64,000 nucleotides of DNA, from contig JBAYHR010000001.1 in NCBI GenBank assembly GCA_041666045.1, positions 119,460 through 183,459 of the forward strand. Reading direction: 5' to 3'. The translations under genes were made by a program, and so were the position numbers. Origin of the DNA: Minisyncoccota bacterium. GTDB lineage: Bacteria > Patescibacteriota > Minisyncoccia > Phycocordibacterales > UBA9973. The number at the start of each line of letters is the position of its first letter. The first letter of the stretch is position 1. Shown here piece after piece: positions 6,814 through 46,946 of the stretch. The notes under the pieces are model-generated. The model did not search any database. It saw only the letters and a program-made list of their open reading frames with translations, and was not told the DNA's origin.

Positions 6814-8073
6814 TTATTTAATAAATTCTTTATTTCCCATATATTTTTGTAGAACTTCTGGGATTTTTATTGAGCTATCAGCTTGTTGAAAGTTTTCAAC
6901 CATAGAAACAAGAATTCTAGGTGTTGGGATAGCTGTAGAGTTTAAAGAGTGAGCATAAAGCATTTTTCCATCTTCGTTTTTATAACGAATACCAAAACGA
7001 CGACATTGAAAATCATGAAAATATGAAGCAGAAGATATCTCACGGTATTTCCCTTCCTTAGGAACCCAAAGCTCTATATCGTACTTTTTAACTTGTCCAA
7101 GGCCTAGATCTCCTCCGCAGTTTATAACTGTACGATATGGAATATTTAAAGATTCAATAAATTCTTCAGTGTTTCTATTTAATTCTTCGTGTAATTTTAC
7201 AGAAGTTTCATGATTGGCTTCACATAAAACAACTTGTTCTAATTTATAAAATTCATGTACGCGTATCAAACCTTTAACATCTTTCCCATGGCTTCCCGCT
7301 TCACGTCGGAAACATGGAGAAAATCCTAAATATTTTATTGGGAAAGAACTTTTGTCTAAAGTTTCTCCTGAGTGCATACCCATAAGTGGCACTTCAGCTG
7401 TTCCAGCAAGAACATCACCATCTTGAGTAGTATAAAAATCTTCTACATCACCCGGTAAATGAGCTGTACCATATAGATTTTGTTTTCTTACTATAACTGG
7501 AGGAATAATTGGAGAAAAACCACGAGCAGAGAAAAAGTCCATTGCATAATTCCAAATTGCAAAACACAAACGTGCTCCATCGTTAGTCAAAAAATATCCA
7601 CGAAATCCGTGAAGTTTTGTTCCTCTTTCAAAATCTACCATCTTAAGTGTAGTCATTATTTCCAAATGATCTTTTGGAGCAAATTCAAATTTTTCTCCCC
7701 AAGTTTTTATTTCTTGATTGTCTGTATCTTCTAATCCATCTGGTACAGAAATATCTGGAACGTTAGGAACTTCAAGCATCAACTTCTGCCATTCTTCTGT
7801 AATTTGTTTTAATTTTTCTTCTTTACCTTTTATATCTTCTTTTACTGCGCGCATTTCTTCAATAAGCTGAATTTTAAGCGCAGGATCTTGATCGCGAGCT
7901 ATGTCATTTGAAACTCTATTCACCTCACTTCGTAGATCTTCTACTTCTTTAAGTATTTTTAAACGCTCTTCATCGAGTTTAATAAGTTGTTCAATATCAA
8001 TATTTACGTGCTTTTTAGTCGCCCCCGCTTGCACGATTTCTTTATTTTCACGAATAAATTTTATATCTAACAT
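6814..8073 (-). CDS. serS: seryl-tRNA synthetase
   Basis: An N-terminal coiled-coil arm plus the class II core are present across the full 419-aa length, which is collinear with SerS. Confidence 0.95.
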   Translation of the reverse strand: MLDIKFIRENKEIVQAGATKKHVNIDIEQLIKLDEERLKILKEVEDLRSEVNRVSNDIARDQDPALKIQLIEEMRAVKEDIKGKEEKLKQITEEWQKLMLEVPNVPDISVPDGLEDTDNQEIKTWGEKFEFAPKDHLEIMTTLKMVDFERGTKLHGFRGYFLTNDGARLCFAIWNYAMDFFSARGFSPIIPPVIVRKQNLYGTAHLPGDVEDFYTTQDGDVLAGTAEVPLMGMHSGETLDKSSFPIKYLGFSPCFRREAGSHGKDVKGLIRVHEFYKLEQVVLCEANHETSVKLHEELNRNTEEFIESLNIPYRTVINCGGDLGLGQVKKYDIELWVPKEGKYREISSASYFHDFQCRRFGIRYKNEDGKMLYAHSLNSTAIPTPRILVSMVENFQQADSSIKIPEVLQKYMGNKEFIK

Positions 8074-8877: not shown

Positions 8878-9582
8878 ATGACTGGTGAAATTAAAAAATT
8901 ACCAAAAGATAAATTCCCTCCTCAACTTTTAGAAATTCCGCAACCACCGGAGGATCTTTGGATTATAGGAGAATTGCCTAAAGAGGATTTAATTTATTTA
9001 TGCGTTGTTGGTTCTCGTAAATTTACTTCTTACGGGAAAGAAGCATGTGAAAAAATAATTGCTGGTTTAAAAGGCTACCCTATCGCAATAGTTTCTGGTT
9101 TTGCTATGGGCATAGATACGATTGCGCACAAGAAAGCGATGCAAGTCGGACTCAAGACTTTAGTATTCCCCGGCTCAGGACTTTCTGATGAAGCTATGTA
9201 TCCAAAAACAAACGTGAGATTAATTCGAGAAGTTTTAGAGAGTGGTGGATGTTTGATTTCAGAATTTGAACCAGACTTCAAAGCGACACAATGGAGTTTC
9301 CCTATGCGTAATAGGCTTATGGCTGGTATGTCAAAAGCTGTGCTTGTAATAGAAGCAGAAGAAAAATCTGGTACTCTAATAACTGCGCGACTTACAACAG
9401 AATACAATCGTGACCTGCTCGCAATTCCTGGATCTATCTTTTCTCCAAGTTCAAAAGGTACAAATAGATTGATTCGCCAAGGAGCGACTCCTGTAACTTG
9501 CTCAGAAGATGTATTAGAAGCACTTGGTTTTGAATTAGAAAAAGATGAAAGTAAACAAGTGAAACTTTTTGAAGATTTATAA
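8878..9582 (+). CDS. dprA: DNA processing protein DprA (Smf), Rossmann-like domain; terminated by an in-frame TAA
   Basis: DprA core motifs VVGSRKFTSYG, SGFAMGIDTIAH and VLVIEAEEKSGTLITA are present. Confidence 0.85.
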   Translation: MTGEIKKLPKDKFPPQLLEIPQPPEDLWIIGELPKEDLIYLCVVGSRKFTSYGKEACEKIIAGLKGYPIAIVSGFAMGIDTIAHKKAMQVGLKTLVFPGSGLSDEAMYPKTNVRLIREVLESGGCLISEFEPDFKATQWSFPMRNRLMAGMSKAVLVIEAEEKSGTLITARLTTEYNRDLLAIPGSIFSPSSKGTNRLIRQGATPVTCSEDVLEALGFELEKDESKQVKLFEDL

Positions 9583-9744
9583 CCTGAAGAAAAGAAAATA
9601 ATTGCTTTATTGAGAGAACCTCAACCTCGGGATGATTTAATTCGTGCGATGAAAATGCAAACATCTATAGCGAATTCCCTACTTTCTATAATGGAAATAA
9701 AAGGACTAATAAAAGAAGAAATGGGAGAAATAAGATTGGCATAA
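9583..9744 (+). pseudogene. dprA: DprA C-terminal winged-helix segment, in frame immediately after the TAA at 9580-9582
   Basis: The same reading frame continues as PEEKKIIALLREPQPRDDLIRAMKMQTSIANSLLSIMEIKGLIKEEMGEIRLA. This matches the DprA C-terminal winged-helix pattern (L..E..IL..L...P...D.L......S...V...L..LEL.GLV). Confidence 0.5.
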
Positions 9745-9778
9745 AAAAAGACCCCGAATTATTTAGAGGTCTTTTTAA
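9745..9778 (+). terminator. weak rho-independent terminator
   Basis: A stem AAGACC/GGTCTT with a 14-nt loop, followed by TTTTT. Confidence 0.35.
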
Positions 9779-9793
9779 TAATTATTATAATAA

Positions 9794-10099
9794 TTATGCA
9801 GATATAGGTACTAGTGTTTTTTGTATCAAGTTTTCAATTATTATATCAAAAACTATTATTTCAGTTTCAGAATGTGATTTAAAAAGAATTTTGTGATTTG
9901 TTATTACAAATTTTATAAATACTTGGTTCTTTTTGTTGTTTACATATTTAATAACTAAAGTATTTGGTTTAACCCAATATTCCTCTAAATTTTTGATTAA
10001 ATTCTCATACTTATAATCTTGTTTAATTTTTATGAAAAGATCTTTGATCTTTTTAACCATCTCATTTTCACTGAAATTAGTTGCAACAATTTTTTCCAT
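9794..10099 (-). CDS. hypothetical protein
   Basis: A 101-aa ORF with no recognisable motif. Confidence 0.4.
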   Translation of the reverse strand: MEKIVATNFSENEMVKKIKDLFIKIKQDYKYENLIKNLEEYWVKPNTLVIKYVNNKKNQVFIKFVITNHKILFKSHSETEIIVFDIIIENLIQKTLVPISA

Positions 10100-10282: not shown

Positions 10283-12544
10283 GTGTGTTATATGATACAT
10301 GCTATGAGACTACTAATCGTTGAGTCCCCTTCAAAAGCAAAGACTATTGAGAAGTATCTTGAGGGCGCGTACACAGTACGTGCTTCTGTTGGGCATATTC
10401 GTGATTTACCAAAATCAAACAAACAAGCCATAGATATAGAAGCTGGATTCGTGCCACATTATGAGATTTCTAAAGGTAAGGAAAAAATTGTACATGAACT
10501 TCAATCTCTTGGAGAAAAAGCAAATGAAATACTTTTAGCGACAGACCCCGACCGTGAAGGAGAAGCTATTGCTTGGCATATAGAAGAATTATTGAAAGAA
10601 GATAAAAAAATTAAAGCTCCTGTGAAGCGTGTAACATTTCATGAAATTACTAAAGACGCTGTTGAAGAAGCATTGAAGCATCCTAGAGATATAGATACAC
10701 CACTACGACGCGCTCAAGAAGCTCGTAGAGTTCTTGATAGACTTGTAGGTTATGATCTTTCAGGATTAATTTGGAAAAAAGTTCGTTATGGACTTTCTGC
10801 GGGACGTGTTCAATCCCCTGCGCTTCGCATAATAATGGAACGTGAAAGAGAAATTCGAGCTTTCGTACCGGAAAAATTCTGGAGGATTTTTGGACTTTTT
10901 GAAACCTCCCACCACCCCGCTCCGACTCAAGGTCGTAGCACCCCTCCTCAGGCAGGATGGGAAAAAATTACTTTAGAATGTTCAGAAGAACCTCGTGATA
11001 AAAATTTAGTAGATAAAATTCTTCATGATGGAAAAAATGGAACTTGGAAAGTTAAAGGAGTTAAAGAATCTGAACAAAAAAGATCTCCTCGTGCACCGTT
11101 CACAACTTCAACATTACAACAAACAGCAAGTTCACGTTTGGGATATTCTCCTTCTCGTACAATGCAAATAGCTCAAAAACTTTATGAAGCTGGGCATATC
11201 ACATATATGAGAACGGATAGTACAAATCTATCAAAAGTTGCTCAAGCGCAAATACTTTCTTTAATTGATAAAGAATACGGCACAGAATATTCAGAAGCCA
11301 GAATATATAAAACTAAATCAAAGAATGCTCAAGAAGCACACGAAGCTATTCGTCCTACGCATGTAGAAAATTTCGAAGCTGGGACAGATGAGCAAACAAG
11401 ACTTTATAGACTTATTTGGGAACGCACAGTGTCTTCTCAAATGACTGATGCGAAGTTGTTAAAAACAAAAATTTCTGGAGTTATTGAAGGACATGAAGAA
11501 TATCCAGATTTTGTGGCAAATGGTTCAAGACTTCTTTTCCCTGGATGGCTCAAAGTTGACGCTGACGCTCGTGGAGAAGATGTGGAACTTCCAGAAGTTA
11601 AAGAAGGAGAAAAATTAAAATTGATTGATCTAACTAGTGAAGAAAAATTTACAGAACCACCAAATAGATATTCTGAAGCAGGACTCGTGAAAGAACTTGA
11701 AGCTCGCGGAATAGGCAGACCTTCAACTTATGCTTCAATAATGAAGACTATCGAAGAGCGAGGTTATGTAAACAAAGAAGGGAGAACTTTATTCCCTACT
11801 GATGTGGGTGAAGTTGTTTCTGATTTTCTTGAAAAGAATTTTGCAAATTATATTTCAGATACATTCACTGCTGAAATGGAAGATGAACTCGATGAAATTT
11901 CTCGCGGTGAAAGAGAATATGAAAAAACATTAAAAGATTTTTATATTCCTTTTTCAAAAGAAGTTAAATCAAAAGAAAAATTAGAAAAAGCTACAAATCT
12001 AGGAGAAGCACCTGAGAATATAAAATGTCCTAAATGTGGAAGTTCTATGATAATAAAACTTTCTAAAAATGGTAAATTCTATTCATGTTCTCGATATCCT
12101 GATTGTGACGGAGCATTGAAACTTGATGGTATAGAAATGGCTGGACCGAAAGAAACTGGTGAAGCTTGTCCTCTTTGTGGAGAAAAGAAAGGAGGAAAAT
12201 TAGTTGTGCGTGAGGGAAAATTTGGATCTTTTATATCTTGTTCTCGTTATCCAAAATGTAAATTCATTAAAAAAGATGAAGCAGAAGAAGCTAAAAAAAG
12301 AACTGGTGTTAAATGTCCAGAATGTAAAACTGGTGAAATTAGTGAACGTCGTGGTAGATTTGGAATATTCTATTCTTGTTCAAATTATCCAGATTGTAAA
12401 TTTAATATGAAATCTAAACCCACAGGAAGAATTTGTAATCTTTGTGGATCTTTAATGATGGAAGGCACAAAAACGATACCAGAGCGTTGTTCAAATAAAA
12501 CTTGTCCTAATCACAATCCTCATAAATTAAATAAAATGGAATAA
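10283..12544 (+). CDS. topA: DNA topoisomerase I with multiple C-terminal zinc-ribbon repeats
   Basis: A TOPRIM N-terminus (LLIVESPSKAKTI), the active-site region and repeated C-x2-C...C-x2-C zinc ribbons are present. The ORF begins at GTG 10283; an alternative ATG lies at 10304. Confidence 0.95.
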   Translation: MCYMIHAMRLLIVESPSKAKTIEKYLEGAYTVRASVGHIRDLPKSNKQAIDIEAGFVPHYEISKGKEKIVHELQSLGEKANEILLATDPDREGEAIAWHIEELLKEDKKIKAPVKRVTFHEITKDAVEEALKHPRDIDTPLRRAQEARRVLDRLVGYDLSGLIWKKVRYGLSAGRVQSPALRIIMEREREIRAFVPEKFWRIFGLFETSHHPAPTQGRSTPPQAGWEKITLECSEEPRDKNLVDKILHDGKNGTWKVKGVKESEQKRSPRAPFTTSTLQQTASSRLGYSPSRTMQIAQKLYEAGHITYMRTDSTNLSKVAQAQILSLIDKEYGTEYSEARIYKTKSKNAQEAHEAIRPTHVENFEAGTDEQTRLYRLIWERTVSSQMTDAKLLKTKISGVIEGHEEYPDFVANGSRLLFPGWLKVDADARGEDVELPEVKEGEKLKLIDLTSEEKFTEPPNRYSEAGLVKELEARGIGRPSTYASIMKTIEERGYVNKEGRTLFPTDVGEVVSDFLEKNFANYISDTFTAEMEDELDEISRGEREYEKTLKDFYIPFSKEVKSKEKLEKATNLGEAPENIKCPKCGSSMIIKLSKNGKFYSCSRYPDCDGALKLDGIEMAGPKETGEACPLCGEKKGGKLVVREGKFGSFISCSRYPKCKFIKKDEAEEAKKRTGVKCPECKTGEISERRGRFGIFYSCSNYPDCKFNMKSKPTGRICNLCGSLMMEGTKTIPERCSNKTCPNHNPHKLNKME

Positions 12545-26477: not shown

Positions 26478-28397
26478 ATGAAAATAGTAACAGTAATACC
26501 TTTTCAAAAAAGCTCTTTTAAAGACGAATTGACCTATTTTACATCACAAAATATAGTTCTTGGTGATATTGTAGATATTTCTGTAAGAAATAAAAATATT
26601 CTTGGTTTTGTGATCTCTTGCGAAGATATAAAAGGAAATAAATCAGATATTAAAAATATGCCTTTTAATTTAAAAAAAATAAAAGGCGCTAAAAAACATT
26701 CTATTTTCTTAAAAAAATTCATAGAATCAACATTTCTTATTGGAAAATATTTTGTGTCAAAAAGAAATTTGTCTATTTCATCTTTAATACCATCTGTATT
26801 TTTAGAAAAATATGACGAAATATCAAAAATAAAAAATAATACAAAAAAACAAAAAGATGTTTCAAAAAACATACTATCTGAAAAATTACTTTTTCAAGCT
26901 CCAATCTCTGGTCGTATAGATTTCTATAAAATTTTAATTCGCAGTTCATTCGCTGAAAAAAAATCTATTTTTATGGTTTTACCAAATGAACACGATATAG
27001 AGATTTTTTCTAAAATGCTTTCAAAAGGACTTGAAAATTTTACTTTTTCTATCCATGGGAATTTAAGCTCTAAAAAACAAATTGAAAAATTTAAAGATAT
27101 ATTAAAATCTGTTCATCCTGTATTAATACTAGGAACTGCTCCGTTTTTATCTATACCTCGTAAAGATTTAGAGACAATAATAGTTGAAAATGAAAATACA
27201 AATGCTTATAAAATGATAAGTAGACCCTATTTTGATCTGCGAATCTTTGCTGAAATTTATGCATCAAAAATTAATGCTAAATTTATATTAAGTGATTCAT
27301 TGCTTAGATTTGAAAGTATTGCCAGAAAAGAATTAGATAATTTTTCTGAAGTTCATCCTTTATCTTACAAAATAAATTTTGAAGGAAAAATAGAAATTCC
27401 TGAAAGACAAAAAGAATTTAAAATATTAGAAGATAGTACAATTAAAGAAATACAAAATAAAATAGCTAATAAAGAGAACGTATTTATATTTTCTTTAAGA
27501 AAAGGATTGGCAACTATGACTGTATGTAGAGATTGCAATGAAATAATAAATTGCGATCAATGCCAATCCCCACTTGTTTTATATATCTCAAATACAACTA
27601 AAAAAAGGTTATTTATATGCAATAGATGCCGAAAAGAAAAAAACCCTGAAACTACATGCTCTAGATGCGGAAGTTGGAATTTAATGCCTTTAGGTATAGG
27701 CACAGACACTGTATTTGAAGAAATAAAAAAATTATTTACTAAAACAAAGATATTTAAACTTGATAAAGAAATAGCAAAAAATACCAGTGGTGCTGAAAAA
27801 ATAATAACTGAATTTGAAAAAGAAAATGGAGCAATACTTATAGGCACTGAAATGGCTCTTTATTATATTAAAAACAAAATCCAACTTTCAATAGTCGCTT
27901 CTTTTGATTCACTTTGGAGCATTCCAAATTTTAAAATGGGAGAAAAAATTATTAAACTTTTAACATCGATAATTTCTAAAACCAAAGATAAATTAATCAT
28001 ACAAACAAAAAATACTCAAGATCCTGCGATACTAACCATTAAAAACCAAAATCTACTTTCTTTTGTGCGAGAAGATTTAGAAGATAGAAAAAATTTAGGT
28101 TATCCGCCATTTAATCGTTTTATTAAAATTATTCATTTAGGAAATAAAGATGAAATAGAAAATACAAAAAAATATTTAGAAGAAATCTTTAAAGAATATA
28201 ATATAGAAATTTTTAGCGGATTTATCGCTAAAATTAAAGATAAATATGTAACAAATATGTTAATTAAACTAAATTACGAAAAATGGTCATTGCCAGAACT
28301 TTCAAACAACGCTTCCATAGATGAAAACTTATTAAATAAACTACTATCACTTCCTAAAGATTTTTCAGTTAAAATAGATCCGGAAGATATTATATAA
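26478..28397 (+). CDS. priA: PriA-like primosomal protein N' with degenerate Walker A/B motifs
   Basis: The PriA-specific Cys-rich zinc module CRDC...CDQC...CNRC...CSRC is present. The positions corresponding to GxGKT and DEEH read APISGRID and ENEN. Confidence 0.65.
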   Translation: MKIVTVIPFQKSSFKDELTYFTSQNIVLGDIVDISVRNKNILGFVISCEDIKGNKSDIKNMPFNLKKIKGAKKHSIFLKKFIESTFLIGKYFVSKRNLSISSLIPSVFLEKYDEISKIKNNTKKQKDVSKNILSEKLLFQAPISGRIDFYKILIRSSFAEKKSIFMVLPNEHDIEIFSKMLSKGLENFTFSIHGNLSSKKQIEKFKDILKSVHPVLILGTAPFLSIPRKDLETIIVENENTNAYKMISRPYFDLRIFAEIYASKINAKFILSDSLLRFESIARKELDNFSEVHPLSYKINFEGKIEIPERQKEFKILEDSTIKEIQNKIANKENVFIFSLRKGLATMTVCRDCNEIINCDQCQSPLVLYISNTTKKRLFICNRCRKEKNPETTCSRCGSWNLMPLGIGTDTVFEEIKKLFTKTKIFKLDKEIAKNTSGAEKIITEFEKENGAILIGTEMALYYIKNKIQLSIVASFDSLWSIPNFKMGEKIIKLLTSIISKTKDKLIIQTKNTQDPAILTIKNQNLLSFVREDLEDRKNLGYPPFNRFIKIIHLGNKDEIENTKKYLEEIFKEYNIEIFSGFIAKIKDKYVTNMLIKLNYEKWSLPELSNNASIDENLLNKLLSLPKDFSVKIDPEDII

Positions 28398-38141: not shown

Positions 38142-39107
38142 TTACTCTTCTTCATCCCCTGTCTCTCCAGATTCAATAGATTCAATAACTTCACCGATTC
38201 CACCTTCCATTATTTTTGGTAAATTATGCCAAGATTTTTTTATACGATGATCTGTCACACGATCTTGAGGATAATTATAAGTTCTTATTTTTTCTGATCT
38301 ATCTCCTGTACCTATTTGACTCTTACGTTCACCAGAATATTTTTTTGCTTCCTCTTCTTCTTTTAATTGCTGAATTTTTGCAGTCAAAATATTCAAGGCT
38401 TTCTCGCGATTAGCTTGCTGACTTCTTTCATTAGTAGAACGCACATCAAGTCCTGTAGGTTTGTGAATCAAACGCACAGCTGTCTCAACTTTGTTCACAT
38501 TCTGTCCTCCCTTACCACCAGAACGAGAATATTCCATTTCTAGATCTGCAGGATTTATTTCAAAATTAACTTTTTTCCTAATTGGTAAAATAGCTACTGA
38601 TGCAGTCGAAGTATGGACTCTCCCATTTTTTTCTGTTGCTGGAATTCTTTGCACTCTATGCACTCCTGTCTCATAACGCATTTTTTTATAAACTTCTTTT
38701 CCTTTTATTTCAAAACTAGCTTCTTTAAAACCACCTAAGTCATTTTTAGATTCATAGTTTGTTTTCCAATTCCAATTTTCTATCTCGGCAAATCTTTCAT
38801 ACATATGCGCAAGCTCCCAAGCAAATAAAGCTGCTTCGTCTCCACCAGCTCCAGCTCGCACTTCTAAAACTATTTCATTAGGGAATTCTTCTTCCTCTTT
38901 TTCTTTATCTAAAATATCTTGTATTTGTTTTTCTGTAGCACTTTTTTGTTCTAATAAAGTATCCAATTCTGTCTGTGCCATATCTTTCAAACTTTCATCT
39001 TTCATCATTTCACGCACATCATTTTCCTCGCGTTCTAAACGCTCAAAAACACCAGCTAAATAGCTCGTCTTGTGATCCTTTTTTAGTTCGTCTAAATTTA
39101 GACCCAT
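38142..39107 (-). CDS. prfA: peptide chain release factor 1
   Basis: The tripeptide anticodon PAT (RIPATE) is RF1-type, and GGQ is present (GGQNVN). The start was moved to [10 protein letters not shown]; the 31-aa N-terminal extension in the ORF track is an artefact. Confidence 0.85.
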
Positions 39108-39122
39108 AAAATTATAAAATAA

Positions 39123-39204
39123 AAATTCCTTAAAATTTTTTGATTCCGAGTGTCCCGCCTCGTACTCGAGGAAGGGCGCAGGAACAAAAAATTTCAAGGA
39201 ATTT
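39123..39204 (-). terminator. long composite hairpin (about 20-bp AT-rich outer stem plus GC-rich inner hairpin) followed by a U-tract; probable rpmE terminator 25 nt before the prfA start
   Basis: Outer arms AAATTCCTTAAAATTTTTTGA at 39123-39143 and AACAAAAAATTTCAAGGAATTT at 39183-39204 match in about 19 of 21 positions. The inner hairpin is CCTCG-tact-CGAGG. Confidence 0.4.
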
Positions 39205-43239: not shown

Positions 43240-44724
43240 TTACAAAAGTTCCTTCAATAATTTAATAACCATTTGAGGATTGGCACTACCATTACTTTCT
43301 TTTATAACCTTACCAACTAAAGACATAATAGCGTTTTCTTTACCACTCTTGTAAGTAGCCACAACTTCAGGATTTTCCCCTATTATTTTCTCTACGATTC
43401 CTTTTATAGCTCCTTCATCATTTTTCTGAATCAAATCTTTCTCTATAGCAATCTTTTTTGGAGATTTATCATTTTCTGCAATCATTGCAAAAATATCTTT
43501 AGTAGCACGAGATGAAGTTTCTCCTCCAGTAAACATATAAATAAGTTCTGAAAAATTTTCAGCACTTGGTATTTTTATATTGGGATTGCTTCTTTTAAGA
43601 CCAATAAAATCTGAAGTAATGTAATTTGAAGCTGTTTTTGTTTTATTTTTATCACCTAAAATTTTTCCAACTTTCTCAAACCAAAAACCAAGTTCTTTAT
43701 CATTTATGTAAACTTCAATATCTTCATCTTTTATTCCAAAATCATTTCTATATCTTGCACGCATTTGTTCTGGTAATTCTGGCAATTCATTTTTCATTTT
43801 TTCTAAATCCCAGCCTGAGGCTGGTCCGCCTTTGGCGGAAAATCTACTATGTAAAAACATTTTTGGAAGATCTGGTTCTGGAAAATATCTATAATCATGA
43901 CTTGATTCTTTTTTTCTTTGAGAAAAAGTTTTTTGTTTAGATTCATCCCATCCGCGAGTCTCCTGTACTATTTCATCTCCCTTTCCACTCTCCATTAGTT
44001 CTACCATTCTATCTAATTCAAATTTAATAGCTTTTTCAACACTCTTAAAAGAATTCAAATTTTTAACTTCAACTTTTGTCCCTAATTTATTTTTATCCTC
44101 GGAAACTGAAATGTTCGCTTCTACACGCATTTCACCTTTTTCCATATTTGCATCAGATACTCCTAAATACCAAAGTATAAGCTGAAGTTCTTTTGCGAAA
44201 GCCGAAGCACTTTTTGCCACTACTTCATCTGACGCATCAAAAGTATTTGGTTCTGTCACAAGCTCCATCAAAGGCACTCCTGCGCGATTAAAATCTATTA
44301 AAGAAAAACCTGCACTGAGCGTAGTCGAAGTGTCACCATCCCTATGTTTGTTGTTTGCTGTGTCTTCTTCTAAATGCACACGAGTTACATCAAAATCTGC
44401 CAAATGTCCTCCTGAAACTATTGGATATTTATATTGAGTAATCTGATAGCCTTTTGGAATATCTGGATAAAAATAATTCTTTCTATCAAATTCTGTAAAA
44501 TCTGCGATATTTCCTCCGATAGCCAAACCAACTTTTATCACGTTTTCTATAGCTTTCTTGTTGGCAACTGGTAAAGTTCCCGGATGTGCCATACAAACAG
44601 GGCAAATATTAACATTCGGTTTTTCCTCATCAGGATTGTTTTTGCAACCACAAAACATTTTTGTCTGTGTTTTTAATTCCGCGTGTATTTCAAGTCCTAT
44701 TGTCGGGTAATATTTTTTATTCAT
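43240..44724 (-). CDS. gatB: Asp-tRNA(Asn)/Glu-tRNA(Gln) amidotransferase subunit B
   Basis: N-terminus YYPTIGLEIHAELKTQTKMFCGC and a YqeY-like C-terminal domain. Confidence 0.95.
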   Translation of the reverse strand: MNKKYYPTIGLEIHAELKTQTKMFCGCKNNPDEEKPNVNICPVCMAHPGTLPVANKKAIENVIKVGLAIGGNIADFTEFDRKNYFYPDIPKGYQITQYKYPIVSGGHLADFDVTRVHLEEDTANNKHRDGDTSTTLSAGFSLIDFNRAGVPLMELVTEPNTFDASDEVVAKSASAFAKELQLILWYLGVSDANMEKGEMRVEANISVSEDKNKLGTKVEVKNLNSFKSVEKAIKFELDRMVELMESGKGDEIVQETRGWDESKQKTFSQRKKESSHDYRYFPEPDLPKMFLHSRFSAKGGPASGWDLEKMKNELPELPEQMRARYRNDFGIKDEDIEVYINDKELGFWFEKVGKILGDKNKTKTASNYITSDFIGLKRSNPNIKIPSAENFSELIYMFTGGETSSRATKDIFAMIAENDKSPKKIAIEKDLIQKNDEGAIKGIVEKIIGENPEVVATYKSGKENAIMSLVGKVIKESNGSANPQMVIKLLKELL

Positions 44725-45115: not shown

Positions 45116-45733
45116 ATGAAAACACTAATTCTTCATTTCCCGGAAATCTCCACCATTATTTTACTAATATTAGTAATTTTTTTATGGAGAGAAATTATTG
45201 TAAAAAGAAAAATAATAAAAGTACTAAAAATTTGTTCTTTTAGAAGTCATAATGTAAATGAATTTTTTAATAAACTTAAAAAACTTAATGTTAAATCATT
45301 CCATTCCATAGAAAATGAGGTAATGCATTCCATTGAATTAATCAGCTATTCTGATCTTTGTGTATTGATTTATGGTGGTGGCTATTCAGAAAGTGGTTTC
45401 TCAAATGAATTGCCTCCAAAACTTGGAAAAGTGTTTGCTAAAATAATTAAGCGAAAGTTGAGCTTAATGGAAAATAAGTTGTTTTCTCAAATTTTTATCG
45501 AAAGTTTAGAAAGACAATTATCTTGTGATAATAACCCATACGCAGATACTTTAATTAAAGAAGCAATGCGAAGTAAAAAAGTATCAGATGAAAGGTTCCC
45601 TGAAGAATTTATTTCAACAATGGAGAATTCTATAAACAAGGAACAAGACGAAAATAAAAAAATTGTCCTAAATGGAGAATTAATAAAAATTCGTAAAAAT
45701 CTAAAAATTTTTAAAGGGATGGAAGTAGAATAA
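45116..45733 (+). CDS. hypothetical membrane-anchored protein
   Basis: The start was set at the ATG at 45116. The tracked TTG start at 45044 is the -35 box of the leader. Confidence 0.45.
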   Translation: MKTLILHFPEISTIILLILVIFLWREIIVKRKIIKVLKICSFRSHNVNEFFNKLKKLNVKSFHSIENEVMHSIELISYSDLCVLIYGGGYSESGFSNELPPKLGKVFAKIIKRKLSLMENKLFSQIFIESLERQLSCDNNPYADTLIKEAMRSKKVSDERFPEEFISTMENSINKEQDENKKIVLNGELIKIRKNLKIFKGMEVE

Positions 45734-45734
45734 A

Positions 45735-45772
45735 CAAAAAAATGCCTATTATTTAAAATAGGCATTTTTTAT
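45735..45772. terminator. rho-independent terminator (9-bp stem ATGCCTATT/AATAGGCAT followed by T6)
   Basis: Directly after the stop of gene 45116-45733. Confidence 0.6.
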
Positions 45773-46453
45773 TTCTTTTTTAAATACCTCAGAGGCCTTG
45801 CCTCTGGGATTATAAGTAATCCAATCTAAAATTTCTCTTTCAAATTCATTCTTGTTGGGGAAATAGTCTGGAAACTTTTCAATAGAAAGTATTTTTGATT
45901 GCAATCTATGTTCCCCTAAATATTCAGGGTAACTTGAGTATTTATATTCTGCGAGATACTTTTTTGTTTCTTTGACATTTTTAATACCAATTTCTTTCCA
46001 ATCTTTGTCTATCAATTTTACAGGATTAAGATGCATGTAAGAAAAAACATATTTTAAATATCTATCATTATATAAATGTTCGGCTTTAAATTTTCCTTCA
46101 AACAAGCTTCCTGTTCTTTTATGTATCGTATTAAAATACATCACATATGCAGTAGAAAATTTTTGCATAAACTTTGATATTCCATCTTCCTCTTTTTCTT
46201 TAATCAAAAGATGGAAATGATTCGGCATTAAACAAAATGTGCCAATATAAACAAATGATTCTTCTCGATCAAAATCATATTCATCTTCTACGATATCTCT
46301 AATTACAAAATTCCTTTTAGAATTGCATAAATATAATAATTTAAGAAAATGAAAATAATCTCCTTTGTTTAAAAAAATTTTTTGTTTACTATTGCCACGG
46401 TTATATATGTGGTAATACTCATCTACAGCAAATGATATTTTTCTTATACTCAT
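45749..46453 (-). CDS. tnpA: IS200-like Y1 transposase (HUH motif HFHLL)
   Basis: YHIYNRGN...CLMPNHFHLLI...Y..MHLNPVK. The last 12 or so codons run past the left-end hairpin into the neighbouring terminator, so the native C-terminus probably lies inside the element. Confidence 0.8.
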   Translation of the reverse strand: MSIRKISFAVDEYYHIYNRGNSKQKIFLNKGDYFHFLKLLYLCNSKRNFVIRDIVEDEYDFDREESFVYIGTFCLMPNHFHLLIKEKEEDGISKFMQKFSTAYVMYFNTIHKRTGSLFEGKFKAEHLYNDRYLKYVFSYMHLNPVKLIDKDWKEIGIKNVKETKKYLAEYKYSSYPEYLGEHRLQSKILSIEKFPDYFPNKNEFEREILDWITYNPRGKASEVFKKEIKNAYFK

Positions 46454-46574: not shown

Positions 46575-46946
46575 ATGGTTTATATAATTTCTATTGAAAA
46601 TGTTATTTCAAATTATTTTGAAAAGAATCAAGATAAAAAAACAGTTTCTCTGTCAGTTTTAAATGATTACAAAAAAAGTATTGAAGTTCTTTTTAGAAAA
46701 AAAGGGCAAAATGTAATCATAGATTTTACAAACGCTTCATTGATTAACACGGTAGTTAATCATCCAAATCTATTTGATTTAAAAGATCAAGAAATAATTT
46801 TTAAACAGTATAGAAAAGATAAACTGGTTGAAGAAGTTAAAAACTATTTCAATTCTACATTGCCGTTTCATATTAAAGAAGATTATCTAAAAATTTTCAA
46901 AAAAGTTAATGATAAATTAACAAAAATTAAACCAATCCAAAAATGA
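46575..46946 (+). CDS. hypothetical protein
   Basis: A 123-aa ORF, unrelated in sequence to gene 45116-45733 although it shares the same leader. Confidence 0.45.
   Translation: MVYIISIENVISNYFEKNQDKKTVSLSVLNDYKKSIEVLFRKKGQNVIIDFTNASLINTVVNHPNLFDLKDQEIIFKQYRKDKLVEEVKNYFNSTLPFHIKEDYLKIFKKVNDKLTKIKPIQK

Follow-up and report, generated by a model that had tools for sequence, protein, structure and literature searches.

Within the window, by which we mean the whole stretch of 64,000 nucleotides analysed here, the dprA gene is interrupted by an in-frame TAA, and the frame beyond it encodes what resembles the C-terminal winged-helix (WH) domain of DprA. The question raised by this locus is whether that codon is a nonsense mutation carried by real cells, an error in one deposited sequence, a stop that the ribosome reads through, or the normal end of a short or split DprA.

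Reading frame and domain layout of dprA

An ATG at position 8878 starts a 234-codon dprA ORF (8878–9582) that ends in KLFEDL, followed by TAA. Past this codon, the frame stays open for 53 codons, PEEKKIIALLREPQPRDDLIRAMKMQTSIANSLLSIMEIKGLIKEEMGEIRLA, up to a second TAA (Table 1). No frameshift or insertion lies between the ORF and this tail; the sequence is as given in the preliminary description, in which a single in-frame TAA interrupts dprA and 53 further codons follow.

The product of the ORF matches DNA_processg_A (PF02481) on residues 9–207 with an E value of 3e-65 and 219.7 bits (gathering score 29.6), and the reconstructed protein scores 216.5 bits with the NCBIfam model TIGR00732 (dprA), for which the equivalog cutoff is 191.15. 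The GIDxxAH and FPxRNR motifs align with those of PDB entries 3UQZ and 3MAJ. No N-terminal SAM domain was found in the dprA product. By the curated definition of DprA, a Rossmann-fold domain that scores above the cutoffs, the window gene is a dprA. The architecture of the clade places the WH in the same polypeptide; in the window, PF17782 is encoded after the TAA.

The tail scores 25.4 bits (E 1.5e-5) with PF17782 (DprA_WH; gathering score 22.9), which bears out the winged-helix signature ascribed to it earlier, and the alignment with 3MAJ confirms it, at the level of sequence, as a canonical DprA WH domain. With the stop bridged, the WH match begins at residue 233, which is profile position 9, and the premature stop falls at about position 11 of the 61-position model. 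Of the earlier statement that the stop separates the two domains, one half holds, as the codon is downstream of the Rossmann domain, but it lies just inside the WH model and not cleanly between the two. Because this is the N-terminal edge of the WH, truncation takes away the whole domain.

An AlphaFold2 model of the full-length protein, built from a shallow 40-sequence alignment and with a mean pLDDT of 53 too poor for a fold search, was consulted for the C-terminal helices only (block-mean pLDDT 65–80 over residues 221–280). It predicts, with low confidence, helices at residues 224–232, 236–244, 251–257, 262–275 and 277–283, with the stop at 235 between the linker helix (224–232) and the first WH helix (236–244).

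At 30% GC, a stop-free run of 53 codons has, by our own calculation, a probability of approximately 1%. Given these odds, the 100% identity of the tail to the C-terminus of a public full-length DprA and the purifying selection described below, the tail can hardly be taken for a chance open frame.

The gene is followed by topA, and this neighbourhood is the usual arrangement. A hairpin, AAAAAGACC...GGTCTTTTT, with a predicted energy of -9.6 kcal/mol (z = -2.5 versus shuffles), is flanked by A and T runs; RNA folding gave such a terminator-like hairpin after the second stop only and none after the first. A strict consensus terminator scan did not list this hairpin, the loop of which is too long, and listed nothing after the first stop. 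The structure looks like a bidirectional terminator common to dprA and a convergent 101-aa ORF. The latter has no family assignment, and its product is unchanged in all assemblies of the population.

Table 1. Positions of dprA and of other features mentioned in the text, counted from the first base of the window
Feature	Position	Strand	Remarks
dprA frame before the premature stop	8878..9579	+	234 codons, complete Rossmann-fold DNA_processg_A domain
Premature TAA	9580..9582	+	Base 9581 is A in the window, C (TCA, Ser235) in other assemblies of the population
In-frame tail, DprA C-terminal WH domain	9583..9741	+	53 codons, intact, downstream of the stop
Ancestral dprA stop TAA	9742..9744	+	End point of the 288-aa public protein and of 286–289 aa orthologs
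Hairpin	9745..9776		Directly 3' of the ancestral stop
101-aa ORF	9794..10099	-	Converges on dprA
topA (topoisomerase I)	10283..12544	+	Toprim, Topoisom_bac and Zn_ribbon_Top1 (Pfam) on the 746-aa product
639-aa ORF	26478..28397	+	Also a gene of the public contig
RF1-like gene	38142..39197	-	
Small protein	45116..45733		
234-aa ORF unrelated to dprA	45749..46453	-	Weak Y1_Tnp (IS200/IS605-type transposase) Pfam match
Small protein	46575..46946		

Orthologs and selection on the winged-helix tail

The gene was compared with 80 orthologous loci of Nomurabacteria, Paceibacterota and Minisyncoccia MAGs that are distinct at the species level (62–94% protein identity). The codon aligned to the stop encodes serine in 65 of them, leucine in 12, arginine in two and threonine in one; a comparison of this kind had been proposed as a check, and it returns a sense codon in every case. 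An internal stop anywhere in dprA was found in none of the 80 loci. In all of them, as in the sister assembly described below, the WH is contiguous with the Rossmann domain, and the ortholog alignment shows it to be conserved, with many invariant positions. The best 120 database homologues are 284–332 aa long, all but two of them 284–290 aa, and truncation near residue 234 occurs in none of these 120.

Selection has acted on both parts of the protein, with dN/dS against relatives of 0.06–0.14 in the tail and 0.04–0.08 in the Rossmann domain. The tail has no differences from the full-length allele. These comparisons indicate that it was a translated and selected part of the protein until the C-to-A change. 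The signs of a decaying pseudogene, namely several lesions or relaxed downstream selection, are absent; there is a single lesion, and the historic dN/dS of the tail is close to 0.1. If the change is real, decay is not yet visible because the inactivation is too young.

The same data bear on the possibility that the DprA of this organism is naturally short and followed by a vestigial tail, or that the WH is a separate product of an internal start, for which TTG 9610 and ATG 9649 are the only codons available. Some functional DprA proteins, such as that of Streptococcus pneumoniae (3UQZ), end just past the Rossmann fold, about where the window ORF stops, and a 44-codon TTG-initiated ORF is present at 9610–9744. 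However, the 80 orthologs and the best 120 homologues are all contiguous proteins with the WH attached, and a tail that is under strong purifying selection and identical to that of the full-length allele is not vestigial. A product from 9610 would miss the first predicted WH helix. Both a naturally short DprA and a split gene thus appear very improbable, and the former, offered in the preliminary description, is rejected. Searched for as separate products, the 44-aa and 31-aa tail peptides were both missing from a collection of 15 billion proteins; separate translation from TTG 9610 or ATG 9649 was rejected as a candidate on the grounds that there is no public product and that the first WH helix would be missing.

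Decoding of the TAA codon

A ribosome that decodes this TAA as an amino acid would make full-length DprA, perhaps alongside the short form in regulated proportions. Such programmed readthrough would agree with the open downstream frame and its complete, conserved WH domain, and also with the +4 base, a C that is rare after TAA terminators in the window (2 of 55). However, the frame downstream of any mutation so young should still be open, and the TAA-C context is the plain outcome of a substitution in TCA-C. Nor is the stop conserved, as the sister assembly, two Logan assemblies and the 80 orthologous species, none of which has a stop at this position, all carry a sense codon. Of the 61 window ORFs that reach 100 aa, 55 terminate in TAA. 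The window contains an RF1-like gene, and a suppressor with a UUA anticodon is missing from its five tRNAs (Gln-ttg, Leu-caa, Trp-cca, Ile-gat and Glu-ctc); Rfam revealed nothing else in the window. Readthrough, likewise among the explanations put forward earlier, is contradicted by the comparison with orthologs, and we regard it as scarcely credible.

Genome-wide recoding of TAA was a further candidate. A six-frame scan for long open segments split by one stop returned, apart from dprA, adjacent genes, and TAA was the dominant terminator; this candidate was rejected as well.

The product of the RF1-like gene scores just under both NCBIfam RF1 equivalog cutoffs (376 versus 400 and 372 versus 423). 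Its start is ambiguous, with a 351-aa ORF from a TTG as opposed to 321 aa in the public call.

Of the four explanations originally offered for the stop, two survive, a nonsense mutation of recent date and an error of sequencing or assembly; readthrough and a naturally truncated DprA do not. Nothing in the comparisons points to programmed readthrough, to a split gene or to loss of the WH at the level of the lineage.

Base 9581 in assemblies of the same population

When the stop is bridged by Ser, the translation is identical to a public 288-aa DprA (NCBI MFA6919566.1, 'MAG: DprA, Candidatus Paceibacterota bacterium'), a name that fits the earlier guess of an episymbiont-like genome. Eight other window proteins that were looked up are exact matches to public products. 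For comparison at the DNA level, 63,850 of the 64,000 bases of the window were aligned with contig Ga0376277_0000339 (265,619 bp) of JGI 3300037810. According to the sampling information in a preprint (bioRxiv 10.1101/2024.05.30.596742), this is a 2017 sample from groundwater well GW1 at a landfill in Southern Ontario, which was also sampled in 2016. The two samplings of the well correspond to SO_2016 GW1 (SRS2844136) and SO_2017 GW1 (SRS12485771). The two sequences differ at only five bases, 9581, 23981, 44662, 44665 and 44674, and the window is a sister assembly of the same population.

At 9581, the window has A (TAA) and the JGI contig has C (TCA, Ser235), so that proteins of 234 and 288 aa are encoded. 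The other bases of the 867-bp gene are identical, as are its neighbours and the order of the genes, and 9581 is the lone difference from the JGI/NCBI contig within 19,744 bases round dprA. It is also the sole protein-changing difference and the sole transversion among the five; those at 23981 (frr) and 44662, 44665 and 44674 (gatB) are all synonymous third-position transitions. The frr change is in codon 179 of this ribosome recycling factor (RRF) gene (minus strand), AAG in the window and AAA in the JGI contig. Those in gatB affect codons 21, 20 and 17 (minus strand), where the window has T, C and T and the JGI contig C, T and C, and are linked within 13 bp.

Base 9581 is also covered by Logan contigs of two sequencing runs (SRR6484324 and SRR18595301), both of which read C there and match the window in the remaining bases. 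Both runs have the alleles of the window, and not those of the JGI contig, at the three gatB positions. Two gatB haplotypes thus co-exist in the population, possibly as the result of a short recombination tract. Random coding substitutions in this sequence would be synonymous in 20.7% of cases and nonsense in 5.5%. With so small a synonymous share, the frr and gatB differences are evidently selection-filtered natural variants and not noise; by our own arithmetic, random errors would produce the pattern of four synonymous changes with a probability below about 0.002.

The stop is a private change of one base, and all relatives have a sense codon at the site. The two surviving explanations agree with a single C-to-A change at 9581 that is absent from three other assemblies of the population, namely the JGI assembly of the 2017 GW1 sample and the two Logan assemblies. 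The dprA gene of the population is clearly intact and encodes a complete two-domain DprA. For this reason, the window gives no ground for inferring lost transformation or unusual decoding.

The truncated protein is already known from public databases. The 234-aa product is present at NCBI (MFA6524029.1) and also in JGI/IMG, deposited independently of the window on a contig of 265,480 bp, and the two records probably derive from one assembly. As exactly this product is on public record, a change made to the window sequence itself, a candidate raised by the C in the JGI contig, is rejected; the window reproduces a sister assembly unchanged. An independent second sighting of the A allele was not obtained in these searches, and the gene-position index has no entry for the 234-aa product. 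With the allele position unspecified, a DNA scan of metagenome_contigs matched neither allele, so that these contigs are not part of that collection.

Some end points of the Logan contigs coincide, or almost coincide, between the two runs: both have one at 8044, and the others lie at 10435 and 10423 and at 44452 and 44454 of the window. Contig ends are also listed at 9436–9462, and there is no break at 9581. The shared break points hint at branch points of the assembly graph, caused by strain variants or short repeats, in serS, near the start of topA and in gatB.

Real allele or consensus error

We are inclined, with modest confidence, to read the TAA as the outcome of a nonsense substitution (TCA Ser235 to TAA) that is very recent, not programmed, and carried as a real minority or sample-specific allele. 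Since the three gatB sites have the window's state in two independent Logan assemblies, the assemblies sample real co-existing genotypes, and the reality of the gatB polymorphism makes a real private SNP at 9581 plausible. In addition, a 265-kb metagenomic contig points to good coverage, and at such depth a majority-rule substitution error would normally be rare.

The competing explanation is that the dprA of the organism is intact (TCA) and that the consensus base was miscalled or misassembled in a single deposited assembly. It draws on the A allele being a singleton, seen in one assembly as opposed to three with C, two of which, from Logan, are on the window's own gatB haplotype, and on the exceptional nature of 9581 among the five differences, as the only non-synonymous one and the only transversion. 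An unfiltered error would have a 5.5% chance of creating a stop in this coding sequence, whereas selection purges real nonsense alleles. The change from C to A matches 8-oxoG library artefacts, the signature of oxidative damage in Illumina libraries. MAG contigs from the same study bear low SPAdes coverage tags (3.2–12.9). Against an error stand the depth expected of a contig of this length, the real polymorphisms that demonstrably separate the assemblies, next to which a private SNP needs no special pleading, and the recording of the same truncated protein at NCBI and JGI/IMG, though probably from one assembly. We consider an error a serious possibility, albeit on the less probable side. Assembled sequence alone does not separate it from a real allele.

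Predicted product and comparison with known DprA proteins

If the nonsense substitution is real, its carrier would be one assembled genotype of the landfill-groundwater Candidatus Paceibacterota population, the other assemblies of which keep the sense codon. Translation would be expected to stop at codon 234, since TAA is the standard stop of this genome, both class-I release factors read it and no suppressor is evident. The predicted product, of 234 aa, would retain the complete Rossmann-fold domain, responsible for ssDNA binding, dimerisation and RecA loading, but not the winged helix. That some cells indeed contain a DprA which retains RecA loading and has lost its module for recruiting the winged-helix partner seems to us an evenly balanced proposition.

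The DprA of S. pneumoniae, which has no WH, loads RecA and supports transformation. It is the best sequence match in the PDB (3UQZ, E 2.7e-37), aligning with query residues 10–218 and ending just past the Rossmann fold. It differs from the window protein in having an N-terminal SAM domain, and a missing WH is the ancestral state of its lineage as opposed to a fresh truncation. The DprA of Rhodopseudomonas palustris (3MAJ) aligns over query residues 18–283, which takes in the Rossmann fold as well as the C-terminal WH; it differs in an additional SAM domain at the N-terminus and in its longer linker.

Helicobacter pylori DprA (PDB 4LJR, 5MLL and 6GW7) shares with the full-length protein the layout of a Rossmann fold and a C-terminal WH without an N-terminal SAM domain, although sequence similarity to the window protein is limited to the Rossmann fold (E 3e-24). 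In H. pylori and Vibrio cholerae, the WH binds ComM and brings it to the recombination site (PMC12012524, PNAS 2025). H. pylori DprA without the WH retains partial transformation activity, equal to that of a comM null (PMC12012524). Deletion of the WH in H. pylori, or disruption of the ComM interface by WH point mutations in V. cholerae, gives a comM-null phenotype that transforms better than a dprA null (PMC12012524). The H. pylori delta-C-ter allele would be the best functional model for the truncated product, with the differences that it is engineered and not natural, and that ComM is the partner there but only a candidate in the window lineage. By analogy, the truncated DprA may be a hypomorph that protects incoming ssDNA and loads RecA but cannot recruit its WH partner, the counterpart of ComM in H. 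pylori and V. cholerae. A tblastn search with Escherichia coli ComM gave no match in the 1.46 Mb made up of the window and the fetched loci, a portion of the genomes concerned.

CPR bacteria are reported to have conserved competence genes, and Saccharibacteria have been shown to undergo transformation (PMC10633639). Tn-seq of a cultivated Saccharibacterium did not identify dprA, comEC or comF as fitness genes (PMC10633639), and an allele of this kind could therefore persist for a while. It would probably be a transient variant, mildly deleterious or near-neutral.

Beyond annotation hygiene, the significance of the stop is small; comparison with a sister assembly settles findings of this type fast. 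If the allele is real, it would be a small case of standing loss-of-domain variation in a CPR competence gene, and the samples taken from the well in 2016 and 2017 would allow it to be followed over time. It would then represent a natural hypomorph in which DNA protection is uncoupled from branch-migration recruitment, and would show competence and recombination genes of ultra-small symbionts as they begin to erode or vary.

Other features of the window

Two further regions of the window may be mentioned. The 639-aa ORF, for which Pfam gave no domain, lies between mreB and genes for a precorrin-type methylase and a penicillin-binding protein (PBP). The transposase-like 234-aa ORF is flanked by the two small proteins listed in Table 1, both without family assignment, and this region may be a mobile-element remnant beside gatB and obg.
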